Assembly (NCBI GenBank): GCA_964515405.1
Contig: CAZERD010000001.1
Span: 7,629-71,628, forward strand
Origin: an uncultured Desulfurellales bacterium
GTDB lineage: Bacteria; Campylobacterota_A; Desulfurellia; Desulfurellales; CAZERD01
DNA length: 64,000 bases
Direction of reading: 5' to 3'
Both the position numbers and the translations under genes were made by a program. A model generated the notes under the pieces. It had not been told where the DNA came from. It saw nothing but the letters and a program-made list of their open reading frames with translations, and did not search any database. Of the stretch, positions 705 through 63,372 are shown piece after piece. Position 1 is the first letter of the stretch, and every line of letters starts with the position of its first letter.

Positions 705-1586
705 ATGGAAAGATACGACAATCAGATGCTTACGGCTCGCCTGTTTAGATTTGTCAGGCAGTTAATGGGGGATTCCTCTGGTATCATGGCGCTTGTCGGG
801 TTTATTCTTCTTATCAGCTTTATATTTATAGCTATATTCGCTCCCGTTATTGCTCCATATAGTCCGGTTAAACCATCTGGAACTCCACTTATGCCACCTA
901 ACTGGCACCACATCATGGGTACCGATAACATGGGATATGATGTGTTCAGCAGATTTCTGTGGGGTTCAAGGATGGCGTTGATTATAGCATTTCTTGCCAC
1001 GTTTATAGCAGCTTCTGTGGGTATTCCTATTGGGTTGATAGTGGGTTATATAGGAGGTCCTATTGACAGAGTGGTTACTATGATTATGGACTCAGTCTAT
1101 ACCTTTCCAGGACTTATACTTGCCATTGCCATAGCGGCTGTTTTGGGACCGGGTATAATAAATATCTCTCTCTCTATAGCTGTTGTTTATGTACCGACCT
1201 ACTACAGAGTCATAAGGAGTCAAGTTACCACGATAAAGTCTGAACTGTATGTTGAAAGTGCTTATTCCATAGGCGCGCGTACCAGGACCATAATATTTGA
1301 GTATGTGCTTCCAAATGTTCTACCGTCTATAATTGTGGTTCTATCAATGAATATTGCCGATGCGATAATGACTGAGGCGGGTTTGAGCTTTTTGGGTTTG
1401 GGTATAACACCTCCTACTCCGGATTGGGGATATGACCTCGCGAATGGCCAGCAATTTTTGATCTCAAACGACTGGTGGATGGCATTTTTTCCCGGGGTAG
1501 CGATTATACTTATTGTGCTTGGCTTCAGCATGTTTGCAGAGGGTCTGAATGAGTACTTCAATCCGAATATAGGGGAGAAGCGCTGA
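705..1586 (+). CDS. ABC peptide/nickel transporter permease, DppC/OppC family
   Basis: 293-aa multi-TM ORF with a permease loop (ESAYSIGARTRTIIFEYVLPNVLPSI). It starts 4 nt after the previous permease. Confidence 0.85.
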   Translation: MERYDNQMLTARLFRFVRQLMGDSSGIMALVGFILLISFIFIAIFAPVIAPYSPVKPSGTPLMPPNWHHIMGTDNMGYDVFSRFLWGSRMALIIAFLATFIAASVGIPIGLIVGYIGGPIDRVVTMIMDSVYTFPGLILAIAIAAVLGPGIINISLSIAVVYVPTYYRVIRSQVTTIKSELYVESAYSIGARTRTIIFEYVLPNVLPSIIVVLSMNIADAIMTEAGLSFLGLGITPPTPDWGYDLANGQQFLISNDWWMAFFPGVAIILIVLGFSMFAEGLNEYFNPNIGEKR

Positions 1587-1587
1587 C

Positions 1588-2541
1588 ATGCCGGTGGCTG
1601 AAATAAAAGAGCTGTCTATAGATTATATCACAAGGAGCGGGGTTGTCAGGGCTGTAGAGGATCTACGGCTTACCATAGGGGATAGAGAAAGTGTGGGTAT
1701 TGTTGGTGAGTCTGGATGCGGTAAGTCAACACTTGGAATGGCTATGCTGAACCTTCTGCCACCGAACGCGAAACCACGGGGGGAAATAGTATTTAAAGGG
1801 AGAAACCTCTTTAAACTTGGTAGGGAGGAACTCAGGAAACTTAGAGGTAGGTATGTATCAATGATATTTCAGGATCCTATGACCTCCCTTAACCCTATAA
1901 TGAGAATTAGGGATCATTTTTTTGAATTGTTTGAGGTGCACTACCCGGACATGAAGAGGGAAGAAATGATAAAAATAGCTTCTGATGCTTTGCTCTCTGT
2001 TGGGGTTGATCCCTCGAGGCTTGATAACTATCCTTTTGAGTTTAGTGGTGGTATGAGACAAAGAGTTATGATAGCTGTGGCTATAGCTCTTGAGCCAAAC
2101 TTGCTGGTTGCAGATGAACCTACGACTTCCCTTGATGTGGTGGTGCAGGAGCAGATAATGCAGGTGTTAAAAAAACTTAAAGCGACTAAGGACATGTCCA
2201 TAATGCTGATAACGCATGATATGGGTATAGTTGCAGAGCTTGCGGAAAAGGTAGGTGTAATGTATGCAGGACATCTTGTGGAATATGCTGAGGTCCACGA
2301 GCTCTACAATGAACCTTTGCATCCATATACGAAGTTGCTTCTGAAGTCCATTCCCAATGTGAAACTGGATGATATGGAGTTAAGACATATCCCTGGCAGT
2401 TTGCCGGATTTGAAAAACCCGCCCAGGGGATGTAGATTCTACCCCAGGTGTCCGTATGCCAAGGAGAGGTGTAAGAACGAGGAGCCGCCGGATATTAGGC
2501 TTAATAGTAGAAGGGTAAAATGTTGGTTGTATGGTGATTAG
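1588..2541 (+). CDS. Oligopeptide/dipeptide ABC transporter ATP-binding protein (OppD/DppD type)
   Basis: Walker A GESGCGKST, signature FSGGMRQR, Walker B LLVADEPTTSLD, H-loop ITHD, and the C-terminal oligopeptide-type motif CRFYPRCP. Confidence 0.9.
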   Translation: MPVAEIKELSIDYITRSGVVRAVEDLRLTIGDRESVGIVGESGCGKSTLGMAMLNLLPPNAKPRGEIVFKGRNLFKLGREELRKLRGRYVSMIFQDPMTSLNPIMRIRDHFFELFEVHYPDMKREEMIKIASDALLSVGVDPSRLDNYPFEFSGGMRQRVMIAVAIALEPNLLVADEPTTSLDVVVQEQIMQVLKKLKATKDMSIMLITHDMGIVAELAEKVGVMYAGHLVEYAEVHELYNEPLHPYTKLLLKSIPNVKLDDMELRHIPGSLPDLKNPPRGCRFYPRCPYAKERCKNEEPPDIRLNSRRVKCWLYGD

Positions 2542-20816: not shown

Positions 20817-23800
20817 CTATTTTAGAATGTGGAATGGTAGCGTTAATGTTCTCTTGATTATACCCAATATTCCTTTTCCTACACTTTTAAATGGTATTGG
20901 ATGGGCATGCATTTTCCCATTTAAGTGTCCGTATACGTGGAAACTTAGTCCAGTAAAACTTTTTTCTTTCCCTCCTATTATCCATCCTACGACTGGAATA
21001 GAGGAGATCAATCTGTTTATGGTCCTGAATGTGATGAACGTGACGTCAAAATCCGCGTAGTTTTTTGGTATGTTGTAGGAGCCGTATGCGAATATGGAGA
21101 TGCTTTTTCCTTCAAAAGCAACTGCTTTGTCTTTTTGGGTGCTCAAAACTCCGTTTCTTAGGTAGAGGGGCGCAGTTATACGGTGATATATTAATTTTCT
21201 GTCAAAGTTCACTTTGCCGCTTAGGAGGGACACAATATTTGTGACTGCAAGGATCTTGTATACCGGTGGTACACCTATGAATTCCCCGTGTTTTGCTTCT
21301 GCATCTATTGGACCGTAAAGAGACTCGAGGCTTATATGCTTTGTCTTTTTACTCCTCAGTCTGAAGTTTACTTTGAGTATGTTGTTCTTCATTTTATTGC
21401 CTGTGAGGAAAGAAAAGATTTTTCTGTCCAGTATCTTACCTATTATATATGAGTTTTTTCTCTGTTTTATAGTGATATTCGCGTTTGTTTCCTTGGAGAT
21501 TAGTGAAAGTTTTGTGTTACCCCCTTGTTTTGTAGCGTGGAATGTGAGGTCGTTGAGTACGAATCTATCTTTCCTGCTAATAAACCTGAACTTCGCGAAG
21601 TGTATCAGAATGTCTGCGTTTATGGCTGGGATGTATATGTTTGGATTGAGCGTTCTATGCTTGCTTCTTGGGGTTTTTGTTCTTTTGGGATATCTTTTTG
21701 CGGTGATAAGCTTTTTTTCTTCATGGGTTGTTTTTAGAGTAAATAAGGGGGCATTAGCCCTAAATGTAACATATCTGGGCTTTGTCAGTATGACCTCCCC
21801 GTGGTATTTCAGTGGAGTGTCTGAGGATATTGCTGTTCCGTGTTGGATGAGTATTTCGTGTTTGCTGAACTTGATGTTGGTGGATATGTTTGTTAGTTGT
21901 AAGTTCCCAACTGCTCCACGGGATAGTGTTACGTTGCCATTTATTCGTTTTATGGTGCCTTTTGATATTAGAAATTCGGCTTTCCCGTTGAGGTATCCAG
22001 AGATATGCGAAACAGGAGTTAGTGAATTCAGTAGGTCAAGATTAAAGTTCTTTAACTGAATTCTTCCAGAATAGTTGTTGCTTTTGAAGTTAAGTGTACA
22101 CGTTGCTTTTAGTCCGCCTTTATTTCCAATCGCAATGTTGGCATTGTAGAGTGTTATTTGATCATTGGTTGCATTTCCTTTTATTTTTAGTAGTATGGGA
22201 AGCATCCTTCCATTGTTGCCATATGCCGTGTATGCTGTTGTGTTGAATGATAGGAGGTGTGGTTTGCCATTTATTGTACCTGATATTTTCATGGGTCCCT
22301 GAGGACTGAAAATGGCTTTATGGGATAGCGATTCTTCCAAGTATGATACGTCTGCCCTTGCCAGTTTTCCCGAGAAGGTGGAATTGAAGGACAGTTCTGG
22401 CTTTAGTGTGATATTTGTGCTATTTGTGCTGATGTGAGACCTTAGACTTTCTGCTTTAAAGTTCGTCATGTCAATATATAGGTAGACAGTATCGTTTTTG
22501 ATGAGTCTGGTCACCTCTATGTTTCCATTTACAGAGAGGTGTTTGCCAGGTACCCAATTGTCTTTTAGGGTTAGTTTGCTTATTTCTATGTGGATATGGA
22601 AATCGAAAGGTGGATGCGGTTTCCACCTGTAGTTTTTTATTTTCGCTGTGCCGCTAAGCGTTCCATGTAGGTTGCTGGGGTTACCAAGTTGTTTTATGTC
22701 TCTCTTAGAGAATATGTTGTGCTTGAGGAAGATTTCCGCCTCTTTCGTGAGATTACCTGAGAATCTCAGTATCATATTGCATGGATATCCTTTGGTCCTG
22801 TTTATTGTGACGGTGGAGTTGTTTAGTTGCATTTCACCGAGCGATCCGTTTAGATGGGCTGTTATTTCGCCTGGCGATACAATTATGGTGTCATACTCTG
22901 TGTTTATCCAGGGATCGTTCTTTTTGAATCTGAGTGTTGCTTTTTTTACCAAGATAGTCCCAGATTTTATGAAGTTTTTGTTGAATTTCCCTGAGAATCT
23001 TAGTTGTTTGACTTTTACCTCGGCACATTTTAGGTATCTTTCCACTTTTATCATATGAATCGTGTTGAGTACTTGTTGGTTTATGGCTAAATATGGCGTA
23101 GTTATTTGTCCGTTCAGGTTTGATAAAGAACGTGTGCTGGTGTTAATATTACCGTTCAGGAGTACGTTGTATCCATTCTCGGAATATAAGGTTAGGTTCT
23201 CCATTTGTAATGTGTTTCTACAGATTTGAATGCTGCCATCAACGGATACATTTGATGCACTGAACATCTTGTAGGTTATAGCGTTTAGTTTTAGGTGGAG
23301 TTTGATTTTACCTTGTAGGTGAGCGGTTAGTGAGCCGGATATGGTTTTTATACCGTGGAATGTTTTTCTCAGTTTAACCAGCAATTCAACCGAAACATGG
23401 TTTCTATGGAGTGTGGCGTTTATGGATGTGTGGTTTGTATTCAAGGTACCGTTGAGTGAAAGGATATTCGTTTTGTTTAACAGGTTGTAGGCAAGAGATA
23501 TATTTCCTCTGTATCCTATGGATGTGTTGTTGATTTTTAGCTTAATCGAGGACTGTAATACATGTATGTCTGCTGGGATTAGGGGAATGTGTAATGGATC
23601 GTGTTTTTTGTCTTTGGTTTTTATTGTTAGGCTGGCATACAGCTTTTTTATGTTTATCTCCCCGAGATACATTTTACCTGAGAATATTTTTGAGAACAGG
23701 AATTTAAAGATGGATACCTTGTCAGATATGTCTTCAGCGCGCACGAGGTTTGTGTTCTGGGATATCCATATGCGTGGAAGGATCACGATAACGTAGGGAA

Positions 23801-23987
23801 AGTCCCTTTTTACTACTGGGTTGCCCAGTTTGTTTACCCTGAGATTATGTATGGTTTTTAGTTTTTTCAGGATGGTTGAGCGGGATATACCCCCGACAAG
23901 CGGGGGTATAATTACATTCCATGTTACGAGTATTCCTGCTGTTAGAAAGATGAGTAAGCCGAGCAGAAACAAGCCCAGTTTTTTCAT
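20817..23987 (-). CDS. Large envelope protein with N-terminal membrane anchor, AsmA/YhdP/TamB-like (tentative)
   Basis: 1056 aa with a single N-terminal TM helix (LGLFLLGLLIFLTAGILV). The body is long, N/K/T/S-rich and beta-strand-like, and the C-terminal segment resembles AsmA-like C-termini (PVVGWIIGGKEKSFTGLSFHVYGHLNGKMHAHP). The family assignment has not been verified. Confidence 0.5.
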   Translation of the reverse strand: MKKLGLFLLGLLIFLTAGILVTWNVIIPPLVGGISRSTILKKLKTIHNLRVNKLGNPVVKRDFPYVIVILPRIWISQNTNLVRAEDISDKVSIFKFLFSKIFSGKMYLGEINIKKLYASLTIKTKDKKHDPLHIPLIPADIHVLQSSIKLKINNTSIGYRGNISLAYNLLNKTNILSLNGTLNTNHTSINATLHRNHVSVELLVKLRKTFHGIKTISGSLTAHLQGKIKLHLKLNAITYKMFSASNVSVDGSIQICRNTLQMENLTLYSENGYNVLLNGNINTSTRSLSNLNGQITTPYLAINQQVLNTIHMIKVERYLKCAEVKVKQLRFSGKFNKNFIKSGTILVKKATLRFKKNDPWINTEYDTIIVSPGEITAHLNGSLGEMQLNNSTVTINRTKGYPCNMILRFSGNLTKEAEIFLKHNIFSKRDIKQLGNPSNLHGTLSGTAKIKNYRWKPHPPFDFHIHIEISKLTLKDNWVPGKHLSVNGNIEVTRLIKNDTVYLYIDMTNFKAESLRSHISTNSTNITLKPELSFNSTFSGKLARADVSYLEESLSHKAIFSPQGPMKISGTINGKPHLLSFNTTAYTAYGNNGRMLPILLKIKGNATNDQITLYNANIAIGNKGGLKATCTLNFKSNNYSGRIQLKNFNLDLLNSLTPVSHISGYLNGKAEFLISKGTIKRINGNVTLSRGAVGNLQLTNISTNIKFSKHEILIQHGTAISSDTPLKYHGEVILTKPRYVTFRANAPLFTLKTTHEEKKLITAKRYPKRTKTPRSKHRTLNPNIYIPAINADILIHFAKFRFISRKDRFVLNDLTFHATKQGGNTKLSLISKETNANITIKQRKNSYIIGKILDRKIFSFLTGNKMKNNILKVNFRLRSKKTKHISLESLYGPIDAEAKHGEFIGVPPVYKILAVTNIVSLLSGKVNFDRKLIYHRITAPLYLRNGVLSTQKDKAVAFEGKSISIFAYGSYNIPKNYADFDVTFITFRTINRLISSIPVVGWIIGGKEKSFTGLSFHVYGHLNGKMHAHPIPFKSVGKGILGIIKRTLTLPFHILK

Positions 23988-49850: not shown

Positions 49851-50781
49851 AGTCGCACATTGCCATGAGGTAATTTTTGTACTGTGAATCATCCAGGAGC
49901 TTTATGGTTTCTTTTGCCTTCTCTGAGTATTTCTTTGCCATGTTCAATGCTTCCTTTAGCCCCGATTCCCTTACCCCGTCGTGTATTGAATTCAGCAACC
50001 CCCCATCCCCTGTTTTGAAGTACTCTACTATATCCCTTCTGAGAGAGATGTGTTTTCTTATAGCGTAGAGGGTAGGAAGGGTTAATTTTCCCTCTTTGAG
50101 ATCATGTTCTGAATCTTTCCCCATTGTTTTTGTTTGTTCAAAGTCCAAGCAATCGTCCCTTATCTGGAATGCCATTCCCAAGTTTTTCCCGAATTCCCCA
50201 AAGATTCTTTGATAATTCTGGGTTGACAACATTGAGCCCACCACTGCACTTGATTCAATAAGCACCGCGGTTTTTTTATATATTATGTTCAGATATTTAT
50301 CAACAGATATATTCGGGTTGAAAGCGTGTTCTATTTCCTCTGTTTCCCCTTCAGATAACAGGTAAGCCGCTCTTGATATATTTTTTGCGATGGTTATATC
50401 AAATTCTAGTACCATATTAAAAGCCAAGGAGTAAAGATAGTCTCCACTGAGTATAGTTGGGTTGATTCCGTACACGGTGTGAGCTGTATCTTTATTCCTT
50501 CTCTTTGTGGCTTCGTCTATTACATCGTCGTGTAACAAACTTGCTGTGTGTATCAACTCCACTATGCATCCAAGCTTCAAAGCCTTTTCTATGTTTGTAC
50601 TTTCATTCAGAGAGAGAGCGGAGTATAGAACTATCAGCGGTCTAAGCCTTTTGCCTCCTTTTATTATCTGTTCATAGACTCCTTTTATTAGATTGCTGTT
50701 GGTTATAACTATTGTTGCAAGCATGTTGTCTATTAAAGGTATATCTATGGAAGCTCTTTGTTTAAGGAGTTCAATCATCAC
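49828..50781 (-). CDS. Polyprenyl diphosphate synthase (trans-IPPS, IspB-like)
   Basis: First and second Asp-rich motifs [10 protein letters not shown] and QIRDDCLDF. Confidence 0.85.
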
Positions 50782-53203
50782 TTGTTTCTACCCTTGAGAG
50801 TCCAACGACTTCGTCTCCATCTGAAAGCTCCATGAGTTTTATTCCATACGCCATTCTTCCCATAACTCTCAGCGTTTCTGATTTAATTCTTATGAGTTTA
50901 CCCTTTCTTGTGATGAGGAAGATATCATCCTCAGGGGTGACTATGGAGCTTGCCACCACATAGTTGCCCTCTTTCAATTTCATACCTATTACACCTCTTC
51001 CTCCTCTCTTTATAAGTCTGATGTCGGATGTGTTTATGAGTTTGCCTATTCCCATTGCTGTTACTATTAGCACTCTGGAGTTTTCTTCACCCCCAAATCT
51101 ATCTGCTGATACAACTATGTCGGTGTTGGTCAGTTTTATGCCCCTCACGCCTGAGGCAGTTCTGCCCATCAATCTTACGTCGGAAACCTTGAATCTTATA
51201 ACCATTCCGTGTTTTGTCGTCAGTATGATGTTATCTTTCTCCGCTGTTTCAAGCACCCTTATCAGCGAGTCGTCTTCTGAGAGTGTGATGGCTATCTTCC
51301 CAGCTGAGGTAATGTTTGAAAACTCTGTCTTGTTACATCTCTTTACTATGCCATTTGAAGTGACAAAAAATAGATTCCCTCTTGCTTTCATGGGTAGGAT
51401 TGTTTTAACAAATTCGCCGGGTTTGAGGTTTAGTAGGTTAACTATGGGTTTTCCTTTGGCTGTGGGTTGAAGTTTCGGTATTTCGTAGGTTTTTATTTTG
51501 TACACCCTGCCGGAATTTGTAAAGCATAGTAGGTCGTCTGTGCTTTCTGCTACAAAGACGTCCGATATGCTATCCCCGTCCGCAAAAGTGGATACGAGTC
51601 TCCCTTTTCCGCCCTTATTCTGAGTGGAGTAGTTGCCAGCCGTAATAGTTTTTATATACCCTCTTCTTGAGAAGACGACAACGAGATTCTCAATCTTTAT
51701 CATGTCCTCAATGTCTATTTTTTCTTCCTCTTCTTTTATCTCTGTTTTTCTTGAGTCTCCGTAGATTTTCTTGATTTCCGTGAGCTCTTTTTCTATTGTG
51801 AATTTCATTGCTTCTTTATTTGATAGTATTGTTTCGTATTGTTGTATGTCTTTGTTTAGTTGTTTGTATTCCTCAAGTAGCTTTTTTCTCTCAAGGCCTA
51901 CCAGACGGGAGAGTTTCATGTCCAGTATTGCTTGGGCCTGACGGTCAGATAACGTGAATCTTTCCTTGAGTTTGTTTCTGGCTTCCTGGGTGTTTTTGGA
52001 AGATTTTATTATGTTTACCACTTCGTCTATGTATTCCAGCGCCCTCATCAAGCCTTCAAGCACATGTGCCCTATCTCTGGCCTTGTTTAGTAAGAATGTG
52101 GTTTTCCTCTTTAGTATGTTTATCCTGTGCTTTACAAAGATTCCTATTAGTTCCTTTATATTGAGTACGCGGGGTACATTATCTTCAAGCGCTAGCATGT
52201 TTATGCCGAAAGTTATCTGCATGTTTGTATATTTATACAGGTTATTGAGCACAACATTTGCTTGTTCGTCTTTTTTTAGCTCGATAACTATTCTGACACC
52301 CTCCTTGCTTGATTCATCTCTAATGTCTGTTATGCCTTCTATTTTCTTGTTCTTCACGAGTTCGGATATGGATTGTATAAGCAGTGATTTGTTGACTTGG
52401 TAGGGTATTTCGTACACAATTATAGATTCTTTATTCTTATTTCTTTCTATTTTAGCTTTGGATCTTATTTTTACCCTACCCAGTCCGTGCTTGTAGGCTT
52501 CTACTATGCTGTTTCTGTCAAAACATATACCACCTGTTGGAAAGTCTGGTCCTGTTATTATGTTCATAAGTTCATCAATTGTGATTTCTCCTTCGCTTTT
52601 TAGGTAGGCGAGAGAAGCATCTATTATTTCGTTGAGGTTATGTGGTGGTATGTTTGTTGCGAATCCGACAGCTATTCCGCTTGAGCCGTTTATTAACAGA
52701 TTGGGTATATAAGAAGGGAGTACTGAGGGCTCTTTGAGGGATTCATCGTAGTTTGGGACAAAATCTACAGTGTTTTTGTCAAGATCCCTAAGCATCTCTT
52801 CGGCTACCTTTGATAATCTTGCCTCTGTATATCTCATAGCTGCTGGTGAGTCCCCGTCAAGGGAGCCGAAGTTACCCTGTCCATCCACGAGGGGATACCT
52901 CATTGAGAAATCTTGGGCCATTCTCACGAGGGCATCGTAAACGGCTGAATCTCCGTGTGGATGGTATTTACCCACCACATCCCCAACTACTCGGGCACAT
53001 TTTTTATAGGGTCTGTTATGTTCCAAGTTGAGTTCTTTCATAGCGTAGAGTATCCTTCTGTGAACGGGTTTGAGTCCATCTCTGGCATCAGGTATAGCCC
53101 TTCCAACGATTACACTCATGGAATAGTCAAGGTAAGACTGTTTCATGCTGGATTCTATATCGACTTCAACAATATTTTTGTTCGAAAACAACATTTCCTC
53201 CAT
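50771..53203 (-). CDS. gyrA: DNA gyrase subunit A
   Basis: 810 aa with the active-site Tyr context AAMRYTE and a C-terminal beta-pinwheel repeat region. Confidence 0.95.
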
Positions 53204-53211
53204 ACTCCACC

Positions 53212-56560
<3,349 letters not shown>

Positions 56561-56564
<4 letters not shown>

Positions 56565-57732: not shown

Positions 57733-59565
57733 CTATTCTTTCAGACTGCTTTTTTTGTACTCGTATATGTCTGAGTATCCGGTGAGGGACTCCTTCGGGT
57801 TCATCATAGTGGTAGCTTCAATGACAAGCAATCCCAGTTCATTTACAGTGTTTACGCCAACATATCCAGCCTGTTTGCAAGCAAAGAATGCTTTTGAGAA
57901 GGTGTCTGGGGAAAGCCCGCTAGACTTTACGGCTTCTTTGGCCTTTTTGGGTGGTATCCTTATTTTTTTTTCGGATTCGTAGAGTAGCCCTGCCCTAGCC
58001 AAGGATGCAATCACCCTGTACATGGTAGGAGTTATGGGTGTTGCGAATCCCGCTGGTATGCTTGTTAGTACCTTGTGTATAATCCTACCGGCTTCTGTCT
58101 TCACTATGTTTCCATCTGGTAGTATCTCTATGAGATGTTCTGCTTCTAGTCTGTCCAATATACTTTCGAGTTTACTTTTTTCATTTTCATTTTTTGCATC
58201 TTTGAGTATATCCCAGATCGTGGTACCCTTTTCTCTTATTCTTTTGAATACTTCTCCATCTCTCTTTGTGATATATGGTTTTCTATCTATATTTTCCGAA
58301 AGAAATGCGTAAAAGTATCCGGATTTTGTTGGTTCATTGCTACCTATAATACCCTCCACTTGGGCCCTGTTGAACCACTCTGTGTTTGGGGCCGAAAATA
58401 CTTTTCTTGTCATGGTGATTGCCTTGATTGATGTTGAGGATATACTTCTCTTCTTTATTTTCTGGTCTTCAAGTACCTTTTTTCCAAAATACGTCAGTTT
58501 GAGCGTATCTGATGAATCCTCGTTTGTGTTTATCTCCACAAGATTAAAAGCTTCCAGGGAATATAGGATGTTTCTCAGTTCTGAGTCTTTGTTGATTTTT
58601 ATTTGGAGTTTTTTACTGTTCATGATTTCTTCAAGGTATACAACCTCTGAGTTTTTTTCTGTTTTCCTAAGGTTGTCTATGTGGAATAGCACTTCAATTT
58701 CTTTTTCTCCTATGGAGAACGACCACACGTCTGTTCTGTTCTTCCTTTTCCACAATCTGTGTACCTCCAGTGCCCACTCTCCTGCGGGTAGGAGTTCTCT
58801 ATGATTTCCAATGTAACCAAGTAGTTGAAGCCATAGAATTGTTGAATCAGGCACGTCATTGCCGTCGGCCACATCTGTCAGGTTTGCAAGTATGGTAGGT
58901 GTTAAAACGTATCCTTCTTTTACGAAACCTCCCAGCTCTAGTGTGTTCTTGACGGCTTGTCCAAGAGCTGTGAACGAATACACATTTGAGTCTGGGATGC
59001 TGTAGGCTATTAGCCTCATGGATTCAAGTAGATGCTCAAAATAACAGTTGTTTTTGAGTTTGGAACTGAGTGCTGGACCTGTTGGGAGTGTTCGGATGTG
59101 TTCTGCGAGTTCGTGAGACACTACAAGGAGAGGGGATATGGAGTTATAGAGACTAAACACTTCCCTGCCGGCTTCGTTGGTTTCAGGGTATGTCTTTTGG
59201 TTGTGTTCGTCCACAAACCCGCGCTCCTTTAGGGGTTCTATGGATGTATCTGTTATTCGCCCCCCTTTTATAGAGGAGTCGAGCATTGCTATCACTTCAG
59301 AGCCGAGCCATCGCCAGTCTGGATTCCACTGTTCTGGCGATAAGAGACGTCCTGAGTCTATAAGATTGCTCAGCGTGTTTGCTAGCTCAGCGCCTGAAAA
59401 GGTTAGAATGACCCTGAGGTTTGAATCCAGAGACACCAGCCCTGCTCTTTCTAGTGTTCTCACTGTTTCTGTGTTGTTTTGCTCCAGTACAGTCAAGGGT
59501 TCTCCCTCGGTTTTTTCTTTTAAGAGTGCTAGAAGCATTTTAGCTTGGGCGCTTTTTATTATCAT
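57733..59565 (-). CDS. Uncharacterised 610-aa soluble protein with repeated winged-helix-like motifs
   Basis: Long ORF with a strong SD (GGAGGTAAGG, 3 nt from the ATG) and its own promoter. It has no P-loop and no TM segment. wHTH-like motifs recur: LERAGLVSL, LKERGFVDE, LARAGLLYE, KQAGYVGV, LEAEHLIEIL and LEAFNLVEI. Confidence 0.6.
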   Translation of the reverse strand: MIIKSAQAKMLLALLKEKTEGEPLTVLEQNNTETVRTLERAGLVSLDSNLRVILTFSGAELANTLSNLIDSGRLLSPEQWNPDWRWLGSEVIAMLDSSIKGGRITDTSIEPLKERGFVDEHNQKTYPETNEAGREVFSLYNSISPLLVVSHELAEHIRTLPTGPALSSKLKNNCYFEHLLESMRLIAYSIPDSNVYSFTALGQAVKNTLELGGFVKEGYVLTPTILANLTDVADGNDVPDSTILWLQLLGYIGNHRELLPAGEWALEVHRLWKRKNRTDVWSFSIGEKEIEVLFHIDNLRKTEKNSEVVYLEEIMNSKKLQIKINKDSELRNILYSLEAFNLVEINTNEDSSDTLKLTYFGKKVLEDQKIKKRSISSTSIKAITMTRKVFSAPNTEWFNRAQVEGIIGSNEPTKSGYFYAFLSENIDRKPYITKRDGEVFKRIREKGTTIWDILKDAKNENEKSKLESILDRLEAEHLIEILPDGNIVKTEAGRIIHKVLTSIPAGFATPITPTMYRVIASLARAGLLYESEKKIRIPPKKAKEAVKSSGLSPDTFSKAFFACKQAGYVGVNTVNELGLLVIEATTMMNPKESLTGYSDIYEYKKSSLKE

Positions 59566-60660: not shown

Positions 60661-60968
60661 TTCTATCTCTTTGGTCTTCTTACGTTTGACCTGGAGGAGG
60701 TGTGAGTTTGGCTGCTCGTGTTGTGATGATGTGCGATGGTAGGATACTGTGAGTGGGCTCTCTTGAGGATATATTTGCTGTCCTGATTGATGGTTTTGTT
60801 GCTGACTTTGTTGAAGCCAGCACATTTGGATGTGTGGTTTCAGATTATGAGGGTAATTTGACAGTTATTGATATTAATGAGAGGTTGAAACTGTATTTCT
60901 CTGACAGAGAAATTGTTGTAGCCGTTAGGCCTGAGAGGATTATGTTTTCCAGGAACCCCTGGGTTTAA
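60661..60968 (+). pseudogene. Degraded 3' fragment of a ModC/CysA/PotA-type ABC ATPase gene
   Basis: Three pieces read as one ABC ATPase C-terminus. TFDLEEV (H-loop region) is followed by a frameshift. LAARVVMMCDGRIL is followed by an in-frame TGA at 60750. The last piece is VGSLEDIF...FVADFVEA...VAVRPERIMF (ORF 60753..60968). The Walker A/B half is absent. Confidence 0.6.
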
Positions 60969-61129
60969 GAGGAGGGTCGGTGCTTGATGTGAATGTTTGC
61001 CATTCAGGGCTTTGCTTACAATTAATGCCTGTGAGTTTCTTGAGTTGACCCGTGGTTCTGAGTTCTGAGGTGTTTGTTCAAATGGAGAGCAGGCATGCCA
61101 GAATAAGAGGTTGATGGATAAGTGTGGTG

Positions 61130-61158
61130 TTGACTTTATTCTGTAGATAGTGTATAAA
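61130..61158 (+). promoter_or_regulatory. Sigma-70-type promoter for the trp leader and operon
   Basis: TTGACT (61130-61135), 17 nt, TATAAA (61153-61158). Confidence 0.55.
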
Positions 61159-61186
61159 TAAATGTATGAATGGAAGGAAAGGATTA

Positions 61187-61222
61187 ATGCTCCATAGAAG
61201 CTGGTGGTGGGATAGCCGTTAA
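61187..61222 (+). CDS. trp operon leader peptide MLHRSWWWDSR
   Basis: 11-codon ORF with three consecutive TGG codons (61202-61210). GGAAGGAAAGGA lies upstream. It sits between the promoter and two terminators, directly upstream of trpE. Confidence 0.65.
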   Translation: MLHRSWWWDSR

Positions 61223-61233
61223 AGGGCTATCCC
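61209..61233 (+). promoter_or_regulatory. Leader hairpin (segments 1:2) overlapping the last Trp codon and the leader stop codon
   Basis: GGGATAGCC (61209-61217) pairs perfectly with GGCTATCCC (61225-61233). Segment 2 can alternatively pair with GGGATAG at 61276-61282. Confidence 0.55.
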
Positions 61234-61249
61234 TTGGAAGGTAAAGAGA

Positions 61250-61318
61250 GCCGCTTGAGGGCTGGCTCCTTTTAGGGGATAGACCTTAAAGGGGGTAAGC
61301 CATCGGGCGGCTTTTTTT
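61250..61318 (+). terminator. Attenuator terminator T1 (long imperfect hairpin + T7)
   Basis: 61250-61277 pairs with 61284-61311. By hand count that is 20 Watson-Crick pairs, 6 GU pairs and 2 mismatches, with a 6-nt loop, followed by TTTTTTT (61312-61318). Confidence 0.55.
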
Positions 61319-61322
61319 ATTG

Positions 61323-61366
61323 GCCGCTTGGTCCGATGGCCAACCATTGGATCGGGCGGCTTTTTT
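61323..61366 (+). terminator. Attenuator terminator T2 (17-bp hairpin + T6)
   Basis: 61323-61339 pairs with 61344-61360 (13 Watson-Crick and 4 GU pairs, CCAA tetraloop), followed by TTTTTT. It ends 14 nt before the trpE ATG. Confidence 0.65.
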
Positions 61367-61379
61367 GTTGGGGGGTGAT

Positions 61380-62819
61380 ATGGCGTTTACTAGGGATGAA
61401 TTTATCAAAGAGGCGGAGTGTGGATCGGAGAGGGTGGTTTTGTACAGAGAGGTTGGGGGAGATATGGATACCCCTGTGTCTCTCCTTCTTAAAGTTGCGG
61501 GAGATAGGAGGTGTTTTCTGCTTGAGAGTGCTAACATCAAGAAGGTTTATAGCAGGTTTTCCTTTCTGGGGTTTGATGTTGAATCTGAGTATGTGATTAG
61601 GGACGATGGGCTTTATTTGGACGGTAGACATGTGGGGGATCTTGGGGAGATAGAAAGGTTTCTCTCAGAGAATAGAACGGTCAGCGTATCGGAATGGAAT
61701 TTTGCTGGGGGATTGGTTGGCTATTTTGCTTTTGAGTTTGTAGATAAAACGCCCGTTCTTAAGAAACCCCTGAGCAAGAAACACGATACACTTGCTAAAC
61801 TGTTCCTGGTGGAGAGATTCTTGGTCTATGATAACTATACTAACAGATTGTATCTTGGGGTATCAAAGAAAGTGGATCATTTCTCTTGTGATTTTGGTTT
61901 TTCTGAGGCAAAAAGTGAGCTTGATCTCCTTGAGAGTGAGCTTTTTAAGAGGCGTGGATTCTTAGAGCCTGTCGCAGTTGGGCCGCGGGTAGTAGACATG
62001 GGTTTTTCCAAGCGTGAGTTTGAGAAGACCGTGTCGTATGTGAGGGAGTTGATAGGATGTGGTGAAGCTATTCAGGTGGTTGTAAGCAATTTTTACGATA
62101 TCCTTGGTATAGATCCCTTTGAGTTTTATAGGGCTTTGAGAAGGTTGAACCCTTCTCCTTATATGTACTTTTTTAAGGATGGGGATGAGTTTGTTGTTGG
62201 TTCGAGCCCGGAAATACATGTTAGGAAGAGGGGAGATAGGATTACCATAAAACCGATAGCTGGAACAAGGCCTCGTGGGGCTACAGAGGAAGAGCTGACG
62301 AGATTCAGAGAAGAGTTGATTTCTGATGAGAAGGAAAGGGCGGAACATTTAATGCTTGTGGATCTTGCCAGGAATGATCTATCCAGTGTTTGCAGAATTG
62401 GAAGCCTTGAGGTGTCAAGCTTCATGGATATAGAGGAGTATTCACATGTGATTCACCTTGTTTCTGAGGTGAATGCTCTGTTGGGTGATGGGTTTTCCGA
62501 GATTGATTTGCTGAAGAACACATTTCCTGCTGGTACACTCAGCGGTGCCCCAAAGAGCAGAGCCGTTGAGATTATAGACGAGGTGGAAAGAGAGGTTCGC
62601 TCCTGCTACGGTGGATGTATTGGATATATTGGATTCAATGGAGACATGGATATGGCTATAACGATAAGGACAGCTGTGTTTAGGCAAGGTGTTGCTAGGT
62701 TCCAAGCTGGTGCGGGTATCATCTATGACAGTGACCCTGAGAGGGAGTACTACGAAACGATAAATAAGCTCGCTGCTCTAGCGAGGGCAGGAGGTGTTGA
62801 TGATAGTATTGATAGATAA
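61380..62819 (+). CDS. trpE: Anthranilate synthase component I
   Basis: I chose the ATG at 61380 because GGGGGGTGA lies upstream; the ORF-track start at 61320 lies inside the terminators. Motifs LARNDL, GTLSGAPK and the N-terminal LLES segment. Confidence 0.9.
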   Translation: MAFTRDEFIKEAECGSERVVLYREVGGDMDTPVSLLLKVAGDRRCFLLESANIKKVYSRFSFLGFDVESEYVIRDDGLYLDGRHVGDLGEIERFLSENRTVSVSEWNFAGGLVGYFAFEFVDKTPVLKKPLSKKHDTLAKLFLVERFLVYDNYTNRLYLGVSKKVDHFSCDFGFSEAKSELDLLESELFKRRGFLEPVAVGPRVVDMGFSKREFEKTVSYVRELIGCGEAIQVVVSNFYDILGIDPFEFYRALRRLNPSPYMYFFKDGDEFVVGSSPEIHVRKRGDRITIKPIAGTRPRGATEEELTRFREELISDEKERAEHLMLVDLARNDLSSVCRIGSLEVSSFMDIEEYSHVIHLVSEVNALLGDGFSEIDLLKNTFPAGTLSGAPKSRAVEIIDEVEREVRSCYGGCIGYIGFNGDMDMAITIRTAVFRQGVARFQAGAGIIYDSDPEREYYETINKLAALARAGGVDDSIDR

Positions 62820-63372
62820 CTATGATTCCTTTACATACAACATATACTATTATCTGCGTCTCGTCGTTGATGAGGTGGAGGTTCTGAAAAGTCTTGAATC
62901 CTTCAGCAAACTGAGGTACTTGGATCCTGATGGAATAGTTATTTCGCCGGGCCCATCTTTTCCTGATGAGAACAGCCTGAGTTTTGAGGCCATAGATGGG
63001 TTCTATGGGAAGGTTCCCATACTTGGGATATGCCTAGGCATGCAGTTTTTGGGATTATACTTGGGTGCCTCTGTGAGGAGAGCTAAAAGCATTATGCATG
63101 GGAAGGTTGATACTATTAAGATTACAAAGGAGTCGAGGATGCTTGAGGGATTGGGCAAGGAGTTTGAGGCTGTTCGGTATCACTCGCTTGTTGTAGATGG
63201 AGATGTACCGGTTGTTGCTGTATCCAGACGTGATGGTGAGTTTATGGCTTTAGAGTACGAAGCAATGGGCATCTATGGAGTTCAGTTTCACCCAGAGTCC
63301 TACTTAACCAAGAATGGAATTACGGTTATAAAGAATTTCCTGGAGGTGGTTGATGATTGGAGAGATGCTTGA
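62800..63372 (+). CDS. trpG: Anthranilate synthase component II (glutamine amidotransferase)
   Basis: I chose the ATG at 62800 (GGAGGTG upstream). The N-terminus reads MIVLIDNYDSFTYN. Catalytic residues are in GICLGMQ and HPES. Confidence 0.9.
   Translation: MIVLIDNYDSFTYNIYYYLRLVVDEVEVLKSLESFSKLRYLDPDGIVISPGPSFPDENSLSFEAIDGFYGKVPILGICLGMQFLGLYLGASVRRAKSIMHGKVDTIKITKESRMLEGLGKEFEAVRYHSLVVDGDVPVVAVSRRDGEFMALEYEAMGIYGVQFHPESYLTKNGITVIKNFLEVVDDWRDA

Follow-up and report, generated by a model that had tools for sequence, protein, structure and literature searches.

In a 64,000-nucleotide stretch of DNA from an uncultured Desulfurellales bacterium (contig CAZERD010000001.1; the whole stretch is called the window below, and positions are counted from its first letter), the region in front of trpE is very probably a ribosome-mediated tryptophan (Trp) attenuator of the trpEGDC operon. 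The best explanation of the data as a whole, to which we give a probability of about 0.6, is that this leader is a chain of three hairpins, that two of the hairpins are intrinsic terminators, and that these two are coupled by a relay helix. The parts are a promoter, a short open reading frame (ORF) with three consecutive Trp codons (WWW), a small hairpin P1 formed by segments 1 and 2, a long terminator hairpin T1 with a near-copy of segment 1 in its apex, a second terminator hairpin T2, and the Shine-Dalgarno sequence (SD) of trpE (Table 1). Two alternative pairings are central to the argument: an antiterminator (AT), in which segment 2 pairs with the near-copy in the T1 apex, and the relay helix, in which the right arm of T1 pairs with the left arm of T2.

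A conserved Trp leader in front of trpE

The leader was compared with the trpE upstream regions of eleven relatives whose TrpE proteins are 49–56% identical to that of the window, hence the sample of 12 genomes behind most of the counts given here. The upstream regions were obtained by a protein search followed by a contig look-up with the exact proteins, and the relative loci named in the spacing comparison are L056, L057, L060 and L143–L151. They cover the Desulfurellia (Hippea and Desulfurella) and the Syntrophia/Syntrophorhabdia types. All eleven relatives share the order of parts with the window, namely promoter, WWW ORF, P1, T1, T2, SD and the genes trpE-trpG-trpD-trpC. An earlier note, made from the window sequence, had described these parts, read them as attenuation in the style of Escherichia coli and suggested an alignment of the regions upstream of trpE. 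In that alignment the ORF and its WWW codons (61202–61210 in the window) are conserved in 12/12 genomes, and P1, AT, T1 and T2 all show compensatory changes. Together with the ribosome geometry described below, this supports the proposed type of attenuation well. Judged from these sequences, the window element apparently belongs to a conserved and uncatalogued family of Trp leaders.

P1 is kept in all of the 12 genomes with 94.8% of the alignment cells paired, against 44–54% when its partner is slid. Segment 1 overlaps the last Trp codon plus the D-S-R codons, and a near-copy of this segment together with its flank (61276–61293 versus 61209–61226, 18 nt) is 89% identical in the window; both the pairing of segments 1 and 2 and the near-copy at the T1 apex are as the earlier note had them. 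In the relatives the apex copy reads GGGRTAGC, or GGGTCAAC in L057. When the 12 leaders are folded together with RNAalifold, P1 and the bases of T1 and T2 are recovered, with compensatory changes on both sides in 15 of 31 pairs. The base helix of T1 is conserved, and nine of its ten pairs have changed on both sides; the base helix of T2 also covaries. The T1 base is G+C-rich and is directly followed by 5–8 T in every genome, and T2 lies 10–18 nt beyond T1 in every genome and carries 6–8 T in the eleven relatives.

A non-regulatory origin, in which a chance WWW mini-ORF lies beside ordinary or duplicated terminators, is scarcely credible. The ORF, its WWW, P1, the apex copy and both terminators stand in the same order before trpE in 12/12 genomes, a conservation by which this idea is effectively refuted, and no upstream or convergent gene requires a terminator at this place. 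Furthermore, the region 61165–61380 (216 nt) folds with a minimum free energy (MFE) of −112.9 kcal/mol, compared with −71.2 ± 4.8 kcal/mol for 200 dinucleotide shuffles, none of which was as good (z = −8.7).

Folding gives both terminator hairpins, with their runs of seven and six T before the trpE ATG, where the earlier note had placed them, and the sequences shared between them are also found at the positions reported there. These are a left-arm 8-mer GCCGCTTG (61250 and 61323) and a 16-mer ATCGGGCGGCTTTTTT comprising the right arm and T-run (61302 and 61351), whose two copies are the sole matches in 64 kb with 3 mismatches allowed. The likeness is limited to these two short and separated arms at the stem base; the interiors of T1 and T2 are unrelated, and the loops and interiors of T2 vary between genomes. 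The T1 stem can be extended onto its T-run by upstream A-rich bases from about 61240. On both strands of the 64-kb window, no hairpin with a T-run below −15 kcal/mol was found besides T1 and T2. Two general explanations were tried and rejected. A mobile or repeated terminator element is contradicted by there being just two copies of the arm motif in the window, and a general tendency of the genome to use terminators in tandem by the lack of any other strong terminator-like hairpin in the 64-kb window. As a separate observation, in L056 (1933–1975) and L151 (1151–1181) T2 and the SD of trpE are separated by an additional, third hairpin that lacks a T-run.

At the gathering threshold, Rfam 15 gave no family in the whole 64-kb window, tRNA included. 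A search of 60900–61500 at E ≤ 10 gave no Trp_leader match and some weak chance matches to miRNA/sRNA hairpin models, and among 14 related trp leaders no family matched the leader at gathering, while the flanks gave a Moco riboswitch and a tRNA. The scan with the Rfam Trp-leader models that the earlier note had proposed as a check therefore returned no RF00513 match at either level in the regions so searched. A TRAP mechanism was rejected, as 61130–61380 has no run of at least five (G/U)AG triplets spaced 2–3 nt, and a T-box leader was rejected on the grounds of no RF00230 match by Rfam and no T-box core motif.

The promoter of the earlier note (TTGACT, 17 nt, TATAAA) is present as described, and its arrangement is kept in the relatives: in all 12 genomes a TTGAC −35 and a TAnnnT −10 precede the leader ATG with the same spacing. 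The window promoter was missed by a consensus scan because its −10, TATAAA, is without the final T. An in-frame ATG lies 36–40 nt from the first base of the −35 and 7–10 nt past the −10 in all 12 genomes (7 nt for ATG 61166 of the window), and the spacing between ATG and promoter is the same in two distant loci, L081 and L119. Because of this constant position after the −10, the leader ORF of the family probably begins at, or within a few nt of, the 5′ end of the transcript. By the same spacing, the window ORF most likely starts at the leaderless ATG 61166 and has 18 codons. The earlier note had proposed an 11-codon ORF with an SD; its peptide MLHRSWWWDSR and the position of WWW are correct, and its start probably gives way to the upstream one. 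The internal ATG 61187, with its SD-like stretch, may be used as well, and both candidate starts read the three Trp codons. Leader peptides of the family have 18–26 amino acids and end in WWW(D/G)S plus 0–2 residues, or in WWWCNML in the case of L057.

Two further observations concern the leader ORF. The window has a direct repeat, TGGAAGGAAAGGA (61171–61183) and TGGAAGGTAAAGA (61235–61247), of which the first copy is the SD-like stretch preceding ATG 61187 and the second lengthens segment 2 on its 3′ side and forms part of the antiterminator; since the copies are alike, the upper left arm of T1, CCTTTTAGG, could also pair with the SD-like copy. In L060, the trp promoter is closely preceded by a second tiny frame (GRWWW-stop, at about 1697–1712), which may be a remnant or a duplicate of the leader.

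Tandem-terminator Trp leaders may extend beyond the 12-genome family, to judge from the sequences of more distant loci. L081 (941–1085), L104 (1000–1160) and L119 (895–1045), with a TrpE identity of about 40%, each combine a leader rich in Trp (NNWCWW..., SWWWW...) with two downstream hairpins that carry T-runs; the relay potential is −19.7, −7.7 and −16.1 kcal/mol, respectively. An automated count of terminators in about 118 distant trpE loci (at least 5 T, −12 kcal/mol or better) was too strict and missed known cases. A scan of a genome collection with TrpE gave relatives at ≤45% identity only, the close relatives not being represented there, and a scan of metagenomes with a TrpE alignment gave relatives of 37–45% identity among the matches listed. 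Many distant trpE loci of beta/gamma-proteobacterial type have recognizable but different Trp leader peptides, which end in ...WRW(W/C) or contain AWPWRR or AWLWRRW (loci in Table 1).

Table 1. Positions of the leader and operon features in the window, followed by the reference loci referred to by name.
Feature	Position	Strand	Details
Promoter	61130..61158	+	−35 TTGACT 61130-61135, 17-nt spacer, −10 TATAAA 61153-61158; read directly
Leader ORF, most likely form	ATG 61166, stop TAA 61220-61222	+	18 codons, peptide MNGRKGLMLHRSWWWDSR; start from family spacing
Internal start of leader ORF	ATG 61187; 61187-61222	+	MLHRSWWWDSR, 11 codons, same frame; SD-like GGAAGGAAAGGA
P1	61209..61233	+	segment 1 GGGATAGCC 61209-61217 with segment 2 GGCTATCCC 61225-61233; proposed anti-antiterminator
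AT	61222..61287	+	5′ arm 61222-61241 (segment 2 + TTGGAAGG), 3′ arm 61268-61287; constrained fold
T1	61250..61318	+	62-nt hairpin 61250-61311, then T7 61312-61318; −42.9 kcal/mol
T2	61323..61366	+	17-bp hairpin 61323-61360, then T6 61361-61366; −29.8 kcal/mol
Relay helix (predicted)	61299..61340	+	61299-61312 with 61322-61327 and 61333-61340; 14 bp, 5-nt bulge, loop = T1 T-run
SD of trpE	61370-61378	+	GGGGGGTGA; before trpE
trpE	61370..62819, ATG 61380	+	479 aa; Pfam Chorismate_bind / GATase domains across trpE-trpG
trpG	62794-63372	+	downstream of trpE
L144			metagenome-assembled genome (MAG); TrpE cluster includes a Syntrophorhabdus sp. protein
L145, L146, L150			three more MAGs, leaders very alike
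L148	trpE upstream region		Desulfurella multipotens, cultured
L149	trpE upstream region		Hippea maritima DSM 10411, CP002606.1, cultured; leader at about 1,536,630-1,536,900
L151	trpE upstream region		Syntrophus sp. MAG
Loci with other Trp leader peptides			L001-L007, L023, L024, L085, L094, L107, L118, L124, L127, L129, L137, L139

Antiterminator and ribosome position

The 3′ arm of AT consists of CCTTTTAG and the segment-1 copy GGGGATAGACC (61275–61285), and inside the helix the left arm of T1 folds into a small hairpin (61249–61252 with 61260–61263). Folding with and without masking of the nucleotides covered by the ribosome, as the earlier note had suggested, distinguishes the two states. 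In the masked fold the first 22 nt were blocked and the transcript was ended before the right arm of T1; under these conditions the helix between segment 2 and the apex copy is the MFE structure in 10/12 genomes, and in the window it is an AT helix of about 20 bp with −34.7 kcal/mol. Without the mask, AT gives way to P1 and the upper T1 stem. As a duplex, AT has −15 to −30 kcal/mol in 12/12 genomes.

Covariation supports AT as it does P1. In the AT core helix 95.1% of the cells are paired, a value that none of 500 shuffles equalled, slid controls reach 33–61%, and three of the seven pairs have changed on both sides. For this alignment the P1 region was spliced to 20 nt around each T1 loop, picked independently of pairing. 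Because MAFFT could not align the variable interior of T1, the analysis used the folds of each genome together with the spliced alignment of P1 plus apex. Individual loci illustrate the joint changes: L056 has GTTATCC as segment 2 and GGATAAC as apex copy, both changed together, and in L057 segment 1 (GGTGCAAT), segment 2 (GTTGCCC) and the apex copy are all altered together.

The ribosome positions fit these alternatives. The size of the ribosome footprint is established knowledge. Segment 2 starts 13–18 nt past the first base of the third Trp codon in the 12 genomes; therefore, a ribosome stalled on WWW covers segment 1 and frees segment 2. It ends 12–15 nt past the first base of the stop codon in 10/12 genomes, and 18 and 22 nt past it in the other two, so that a terminating ribosome covers most of segment 2. 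The earlier note had supposed that segment 2, freed by a stalled ribosome, invades the T1 apex, and both this geometry and the masked folds agree with that. P1 and AT share segment 2 as a strand; AT claims no part of the strand that makes up the T1 base, but traps it in a short closed loop, and so excludes T1 topologically, by crossing helices.

The following course of events is proposed. Transcription would start about 7 nt past the −10, and the leader ORF would probably be translated from the leaderless AUG. When Trp is plentiful, the ribosome would reach the TAA and cover segment 2, or it would depart and P1 would form; in either case the segment-1 copy would remain within the T1 apex, so that T1 could form and terminate transcription. 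Polymerases escaping T1 would meet an intact T2, and leakage would be the product of two failure rates. When Trp is scarce, the ribosome would stall on WWW and cover segment 1, and 61222–61241 (segment 2 and its 3′ flank) would pair with 61268–61287 (the T1 apex and upper left arm). AT would lock the remaining left arm of T1 in a small closed loop and thereby block T1. The freed right arm of T1 (61299–61312) would pair with the left arm of T2 as it emerges, the formation of T2 would be delayed, and the polymerase would pass both T-runs into trpE. The proposed OFF state thus consists of segments 1:2, T1 and T2, and the proposed ON state of segment 2 with the segment-1 copy (2:1′) and the T1 right arm with the T2 left arm.

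Proposed coupling of the two terminators

The pairing between the right arm of T1 and the left arm of T2 that the earlier note had pointed out exists in the window, and it is longer than the 10 bp given there, with 14 bp (Table 1). Under an imposed AT, and as long as the right arm of T2 is not yet made, the relay helix is the MFE structure in all 12 genomes, and it stays so in 3/12 with the right arm of T2 present. In the window the relay hairpin alone has −25.6 kcal/mol, against −29.8 kcal/mol for T2, and the barrier to refolding is estimated at 14.4 kcal/mol. Across the genomes, isolated relay hairpins have −11 to −28 kcal/mol and are about as stable as T2 or more stable in 6/12, and the barriers from relay to T2 are estimated at 6–17 kcal/mol. 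Duplexes between the T1 right arm and the T2 left arm are more stable within a genome than between genomes (−17.3 versus −13.5 kcal/mol; permutation p = 5e-5). Along the basal 9 bp of the relay, 86% of the alignment cells are paired, and the covariation score of this part was reached by 2 of 500 shuffles.

The arms of the two terminators co-evolve in a four-way manner: the stems differ between genomes by compensatory changes and are alike within each genome. If the T1 right arm has to be complementary to the left arms of both terminators, these must resemble each other and therefore so must the right arms. The observed pattern is the one that a relay would impose. It would be awkward for a recent duplication or a contiguous gene conversion, which does not make it a proof. 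A design argument leads in this direction too: without regulation, T2 would depress expression to the same degree whether the operon is induced or repressed, and on this logic there would be no reason to keep it in 12/12 genomes. Coupling of T1 and T2 by the relay, for which folding, arm co-evolution and this argument speak, is the best explanation at hand and about as likely as not or slightly more so, although unproven.

Several points weigh against the model of a relay-coupled chain. The evidence is computational throughout, and leaderless initiation is taken from nothing but the promoter spacing. The masked MFE structure is other than the AT helix in L056 and L149. The lowest 9–14 nt of the left arm of T1 are left unpaired in the AT loop, and the exclusion of T1 by AT is a matter of topology and sterics, not of direct sequestration. 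At equilibrium T1 is more stable than AT in 11/12 genomes, so that regulation has to act kinetically, as it does in other attenuators. The barriers from AT to T1 are estimated at 14–27 kcal/mol in 11/12 genomes by a direct-path and pseudoknot-free heuristic, and it is by such barriers only that the co-transcriptional kinetics on which the model depends are approximated. As for the relay, T2 is favored over it at equilibrium in 9/12 genomes, and in the distant tandem-terminator locus L104 it is weak. The mirror pairing, between the left arm of T1 and the right arm of T2, plays no part in the relay, yet it scores the same or better in complementarity and covariation; relay and mirror were compared in three ways, by truncated arms, full arms and alignment counts, and none showed a difference. 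The mirror comparison thus gives the relay no directional support. It has little power, because selection on the relay itself predicts the mirror complementarity. The data establish a lasting likeness of T1 and T2 and do not demonstrate selection on the relay itself. Of the earlier note's proposal that a single stalling event relieves both terminators through the relay, it stands that the helix can form in 12/12 genomes and that its arms co-vary; by these tests, selection on the relay is not separable from a mere likeness of T1 and T2, as the mirror pairing co-varies equally.

The equal complementarity and co-variation of relay and mirror, the thermodynamic preference for T2 in 9/12 genomes and the weak relay of L104 are also what two uncoupled terminators would give, with T1 alone regulated, T2 a constitutive and partly efficient back-stop that does no more than lower total output, and the likeness of the arms due to duplication or local homogenization. 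Generic GCCG...CGGC arm ends explain part of the complementarity (off-diagonal mean −13.5 kcal/mol). We consider this rather unlikely: an unregulated T2 brings no regulatory gain over a weaker promoter and yet is kept 10–18 nt past T1 in all 12 genomes, and compensatory stem changes between genomes, with likeness within each and restricted to short separated arms, are hard to obtain by recent duplication or gene conversion.

The order of hairpins raises another question, namely whether T1 terminates at all. In the his leader of Salmonella and E. coli, the pairings A:B, C:D and E:F form when transcription terminates, and B:C and D:E form at read-through; Johnston et al. reportedly described this leader of the his operon as a chain of helices in 1980. 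The OFF and ON states proposed here (1:2, T1 and T2 versus 2:1′ and T1 right arm with T2 left arm) fit this scheme, and T2 might be the sole effective terminator, with T1 as a middle hairpin that passes on the signal as C:D does and with a T-run that is a by-product of arm copying. T1 is indeed unusually long, with 62 nt, and its T-run in the window can pair with upstream A-rich bases. This explanation is improbable, since a G+C-rich base followed by 5–8 T in 12/12 genomes is the canonical signature of an intrinsic terminator, and a T-run without function would not be expected to persist at TrpE identities of 49–56%. Still less probable is a two-input leader, in which a second independent signal (a protein, tRNA or small molecule) acts on T2 or T1. 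Tandems with two sensors exist, for example mgtCBR (PMC3641672), but the present leader has no second small ORF, the linker between T1 and T2 is just 10–18 nt, the loops and interiors of T2 are unconserved between genomes, and there are no TRAP-type triplet repeats, no T-box core and no Rfam match in the window and the 14 related leaders.

Known attenuators, surroundings and significance

The leader resembles the trpL of E. coli and Salmonella in having consecutive Trp codons near the stop of a short ORF directly upstream of trpE, in a 1:2 hairpin that overlaps the Trp codons, in a second possible partner of segment 2 further downstream, the pairing with which is incompatible with the terminator, and in the logic of ribosome position. 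It differs from them in several respects. The window family has no sequence or structure match to RF00513 Trp_leader, even at E ≤ 10; it has three Trp codons (two in E. coli trpL), a probably leaderless ORF and two terminators (one in E. coli). Furthermore, what corresponds to segment 3 is the near-copy of segment 1, which sits at the apex of the long T1 hairpin; antitermination would work by trapping the left arm of this terminator in a loop and not through a shared stem strand. With the his leader the present one has in common three OFF hairpins, two register-shifted ON hairpins and the passing of the ribosome signal to a distal terminator, and folding gave the three OFF hairpins of the his type and, in 12/12 genomes, the two ON hairpins (AT and relay). 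The middle hairpin C:D of the his leader is without a T-run, whereas T1 is a canonical terminator with 5–8 T in 12/12 genomes; moreover, the two terminators here have arm sequences in common, and amino acid, peptide and sequence are not those of the his leader.

Tandem arrangements as such are not new. Tandem T-boxes and tandem riboswitches exist, and the mgtCBR leader of Salmonella has tandem attenuators with two sensors (PMC3641672). Like the present leader, all these have more than one attenuation decision point; there, each decision point has its own sensor, an ORF or an aptamer, often for two signals, whereas here one WWW sensor would serve both. The rimP-leader of some Gammaproteobacteria has a second premature terminator in tandem (Naville & Gautheret 2010, PMC2965389), and its upstream terminator likewise has a potential antiterminator; leader peptide, amino-acid sensing and a described coupling are absent there, and genes and lineages differ. 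In synthetic tandem pT181 attenuators (Lucks laboratory), the series arrangement shifts the threshold and sensitivity of the response (bioRxiv 10.1101/003335). These are two attenuators in series with the engineering rationale that is proposed here for a natural design, but the same antisense RNA binds each copy separately, with no helix relay and no ribosome sensing. Mycobacterial polycysteine upstream ORFs are leaderless attenuators (bioRxiv 10.1101/834739) in which, as here, a regulatory short ORF at the transcript 5′ end senses one amino acid; phylum and amino acid differ, the mechanism there is not one of paired intrinsic terminators, and the leaderless start of the present family is read from spacing alone.

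To our knowledge, leader-peptide attenuation is known almost entirely from single-terminator cases, in Proteobacteria and a few Actinobacteria. In a limited full-text literature search, no amino-acid leader-peptide attenuator was found described as having two intrinsic terminators, whether coupled or uncoupled, and a prior description is possible. The supposition of the earlier note that the design was undescribed agrees with this and with the Rfam checks; the design is not unique to the window genome, being carried by eleven relatives.

The surroundings of the leader are as follows. The GyrB of the window (53212–55566, minus strand) is 67–68% identical to that of Hippea species, by which the window belongs to an uncultured relative of Hippea (Desulfurellia), and the nearest TrpE proteins in a search of 5.8 billion sequences are 56% identical. 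The genes gyrA, gyrB and a recF-like gene are consecutive on the minus strand, with a 610-aa DUF505 protein adjoining (50771–56564 and 57733–59565, both minus strand), and this stretch may be a neighborhood of the chromosome origin. The GC skew of the plus strand is very strong (0.2–0.35) in several 4-kb bins of the window. An ORF of 1056 aa (20817–23987, minus strand) gave no Pfam match at E ≤ 0.001. Among the relatives, a tRNA gene (L149 814–887, plus strand) lies just upstream of the trp promoter of H. maritima, and in L057 a Moco/tungsten riboswitch (RF01055, 81.6 bits; 1514–1634, minus strand) lies just upstream of the trp leader on the opposite strand.

In its most complete form, the proposal is that of a single-sensor domino attenuator: one stall at WWW would disarm both terminators, which would multiply in series when repressed, with co-evolving arms, a leaderless ORF, and a conserved family outside Rfam in the Desulfurellia and Syntrophia/Syntrophorhabdia types. 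For all of this to hold together, we see even chances. If true, one sensor over two serial terminators would mean lower leakage and a wider dynamic range without a repressor, the same solution at which synthetic biologists arrived with tandem attenuators, and the chain of helices of the his type would be extended to an intermediate hairpin that itself terminates. The leader defines an apparently new RNA family with which trp operons can be annotated in the genomes of Desulfurellia and Syntrophia types. Since H. maritima and D. multipotens are cultured, the element is directly testable. Should the relay fail, a new and well-conserved family of Trp leaders would still stand, with a leader ORF that is apparently leaderless.

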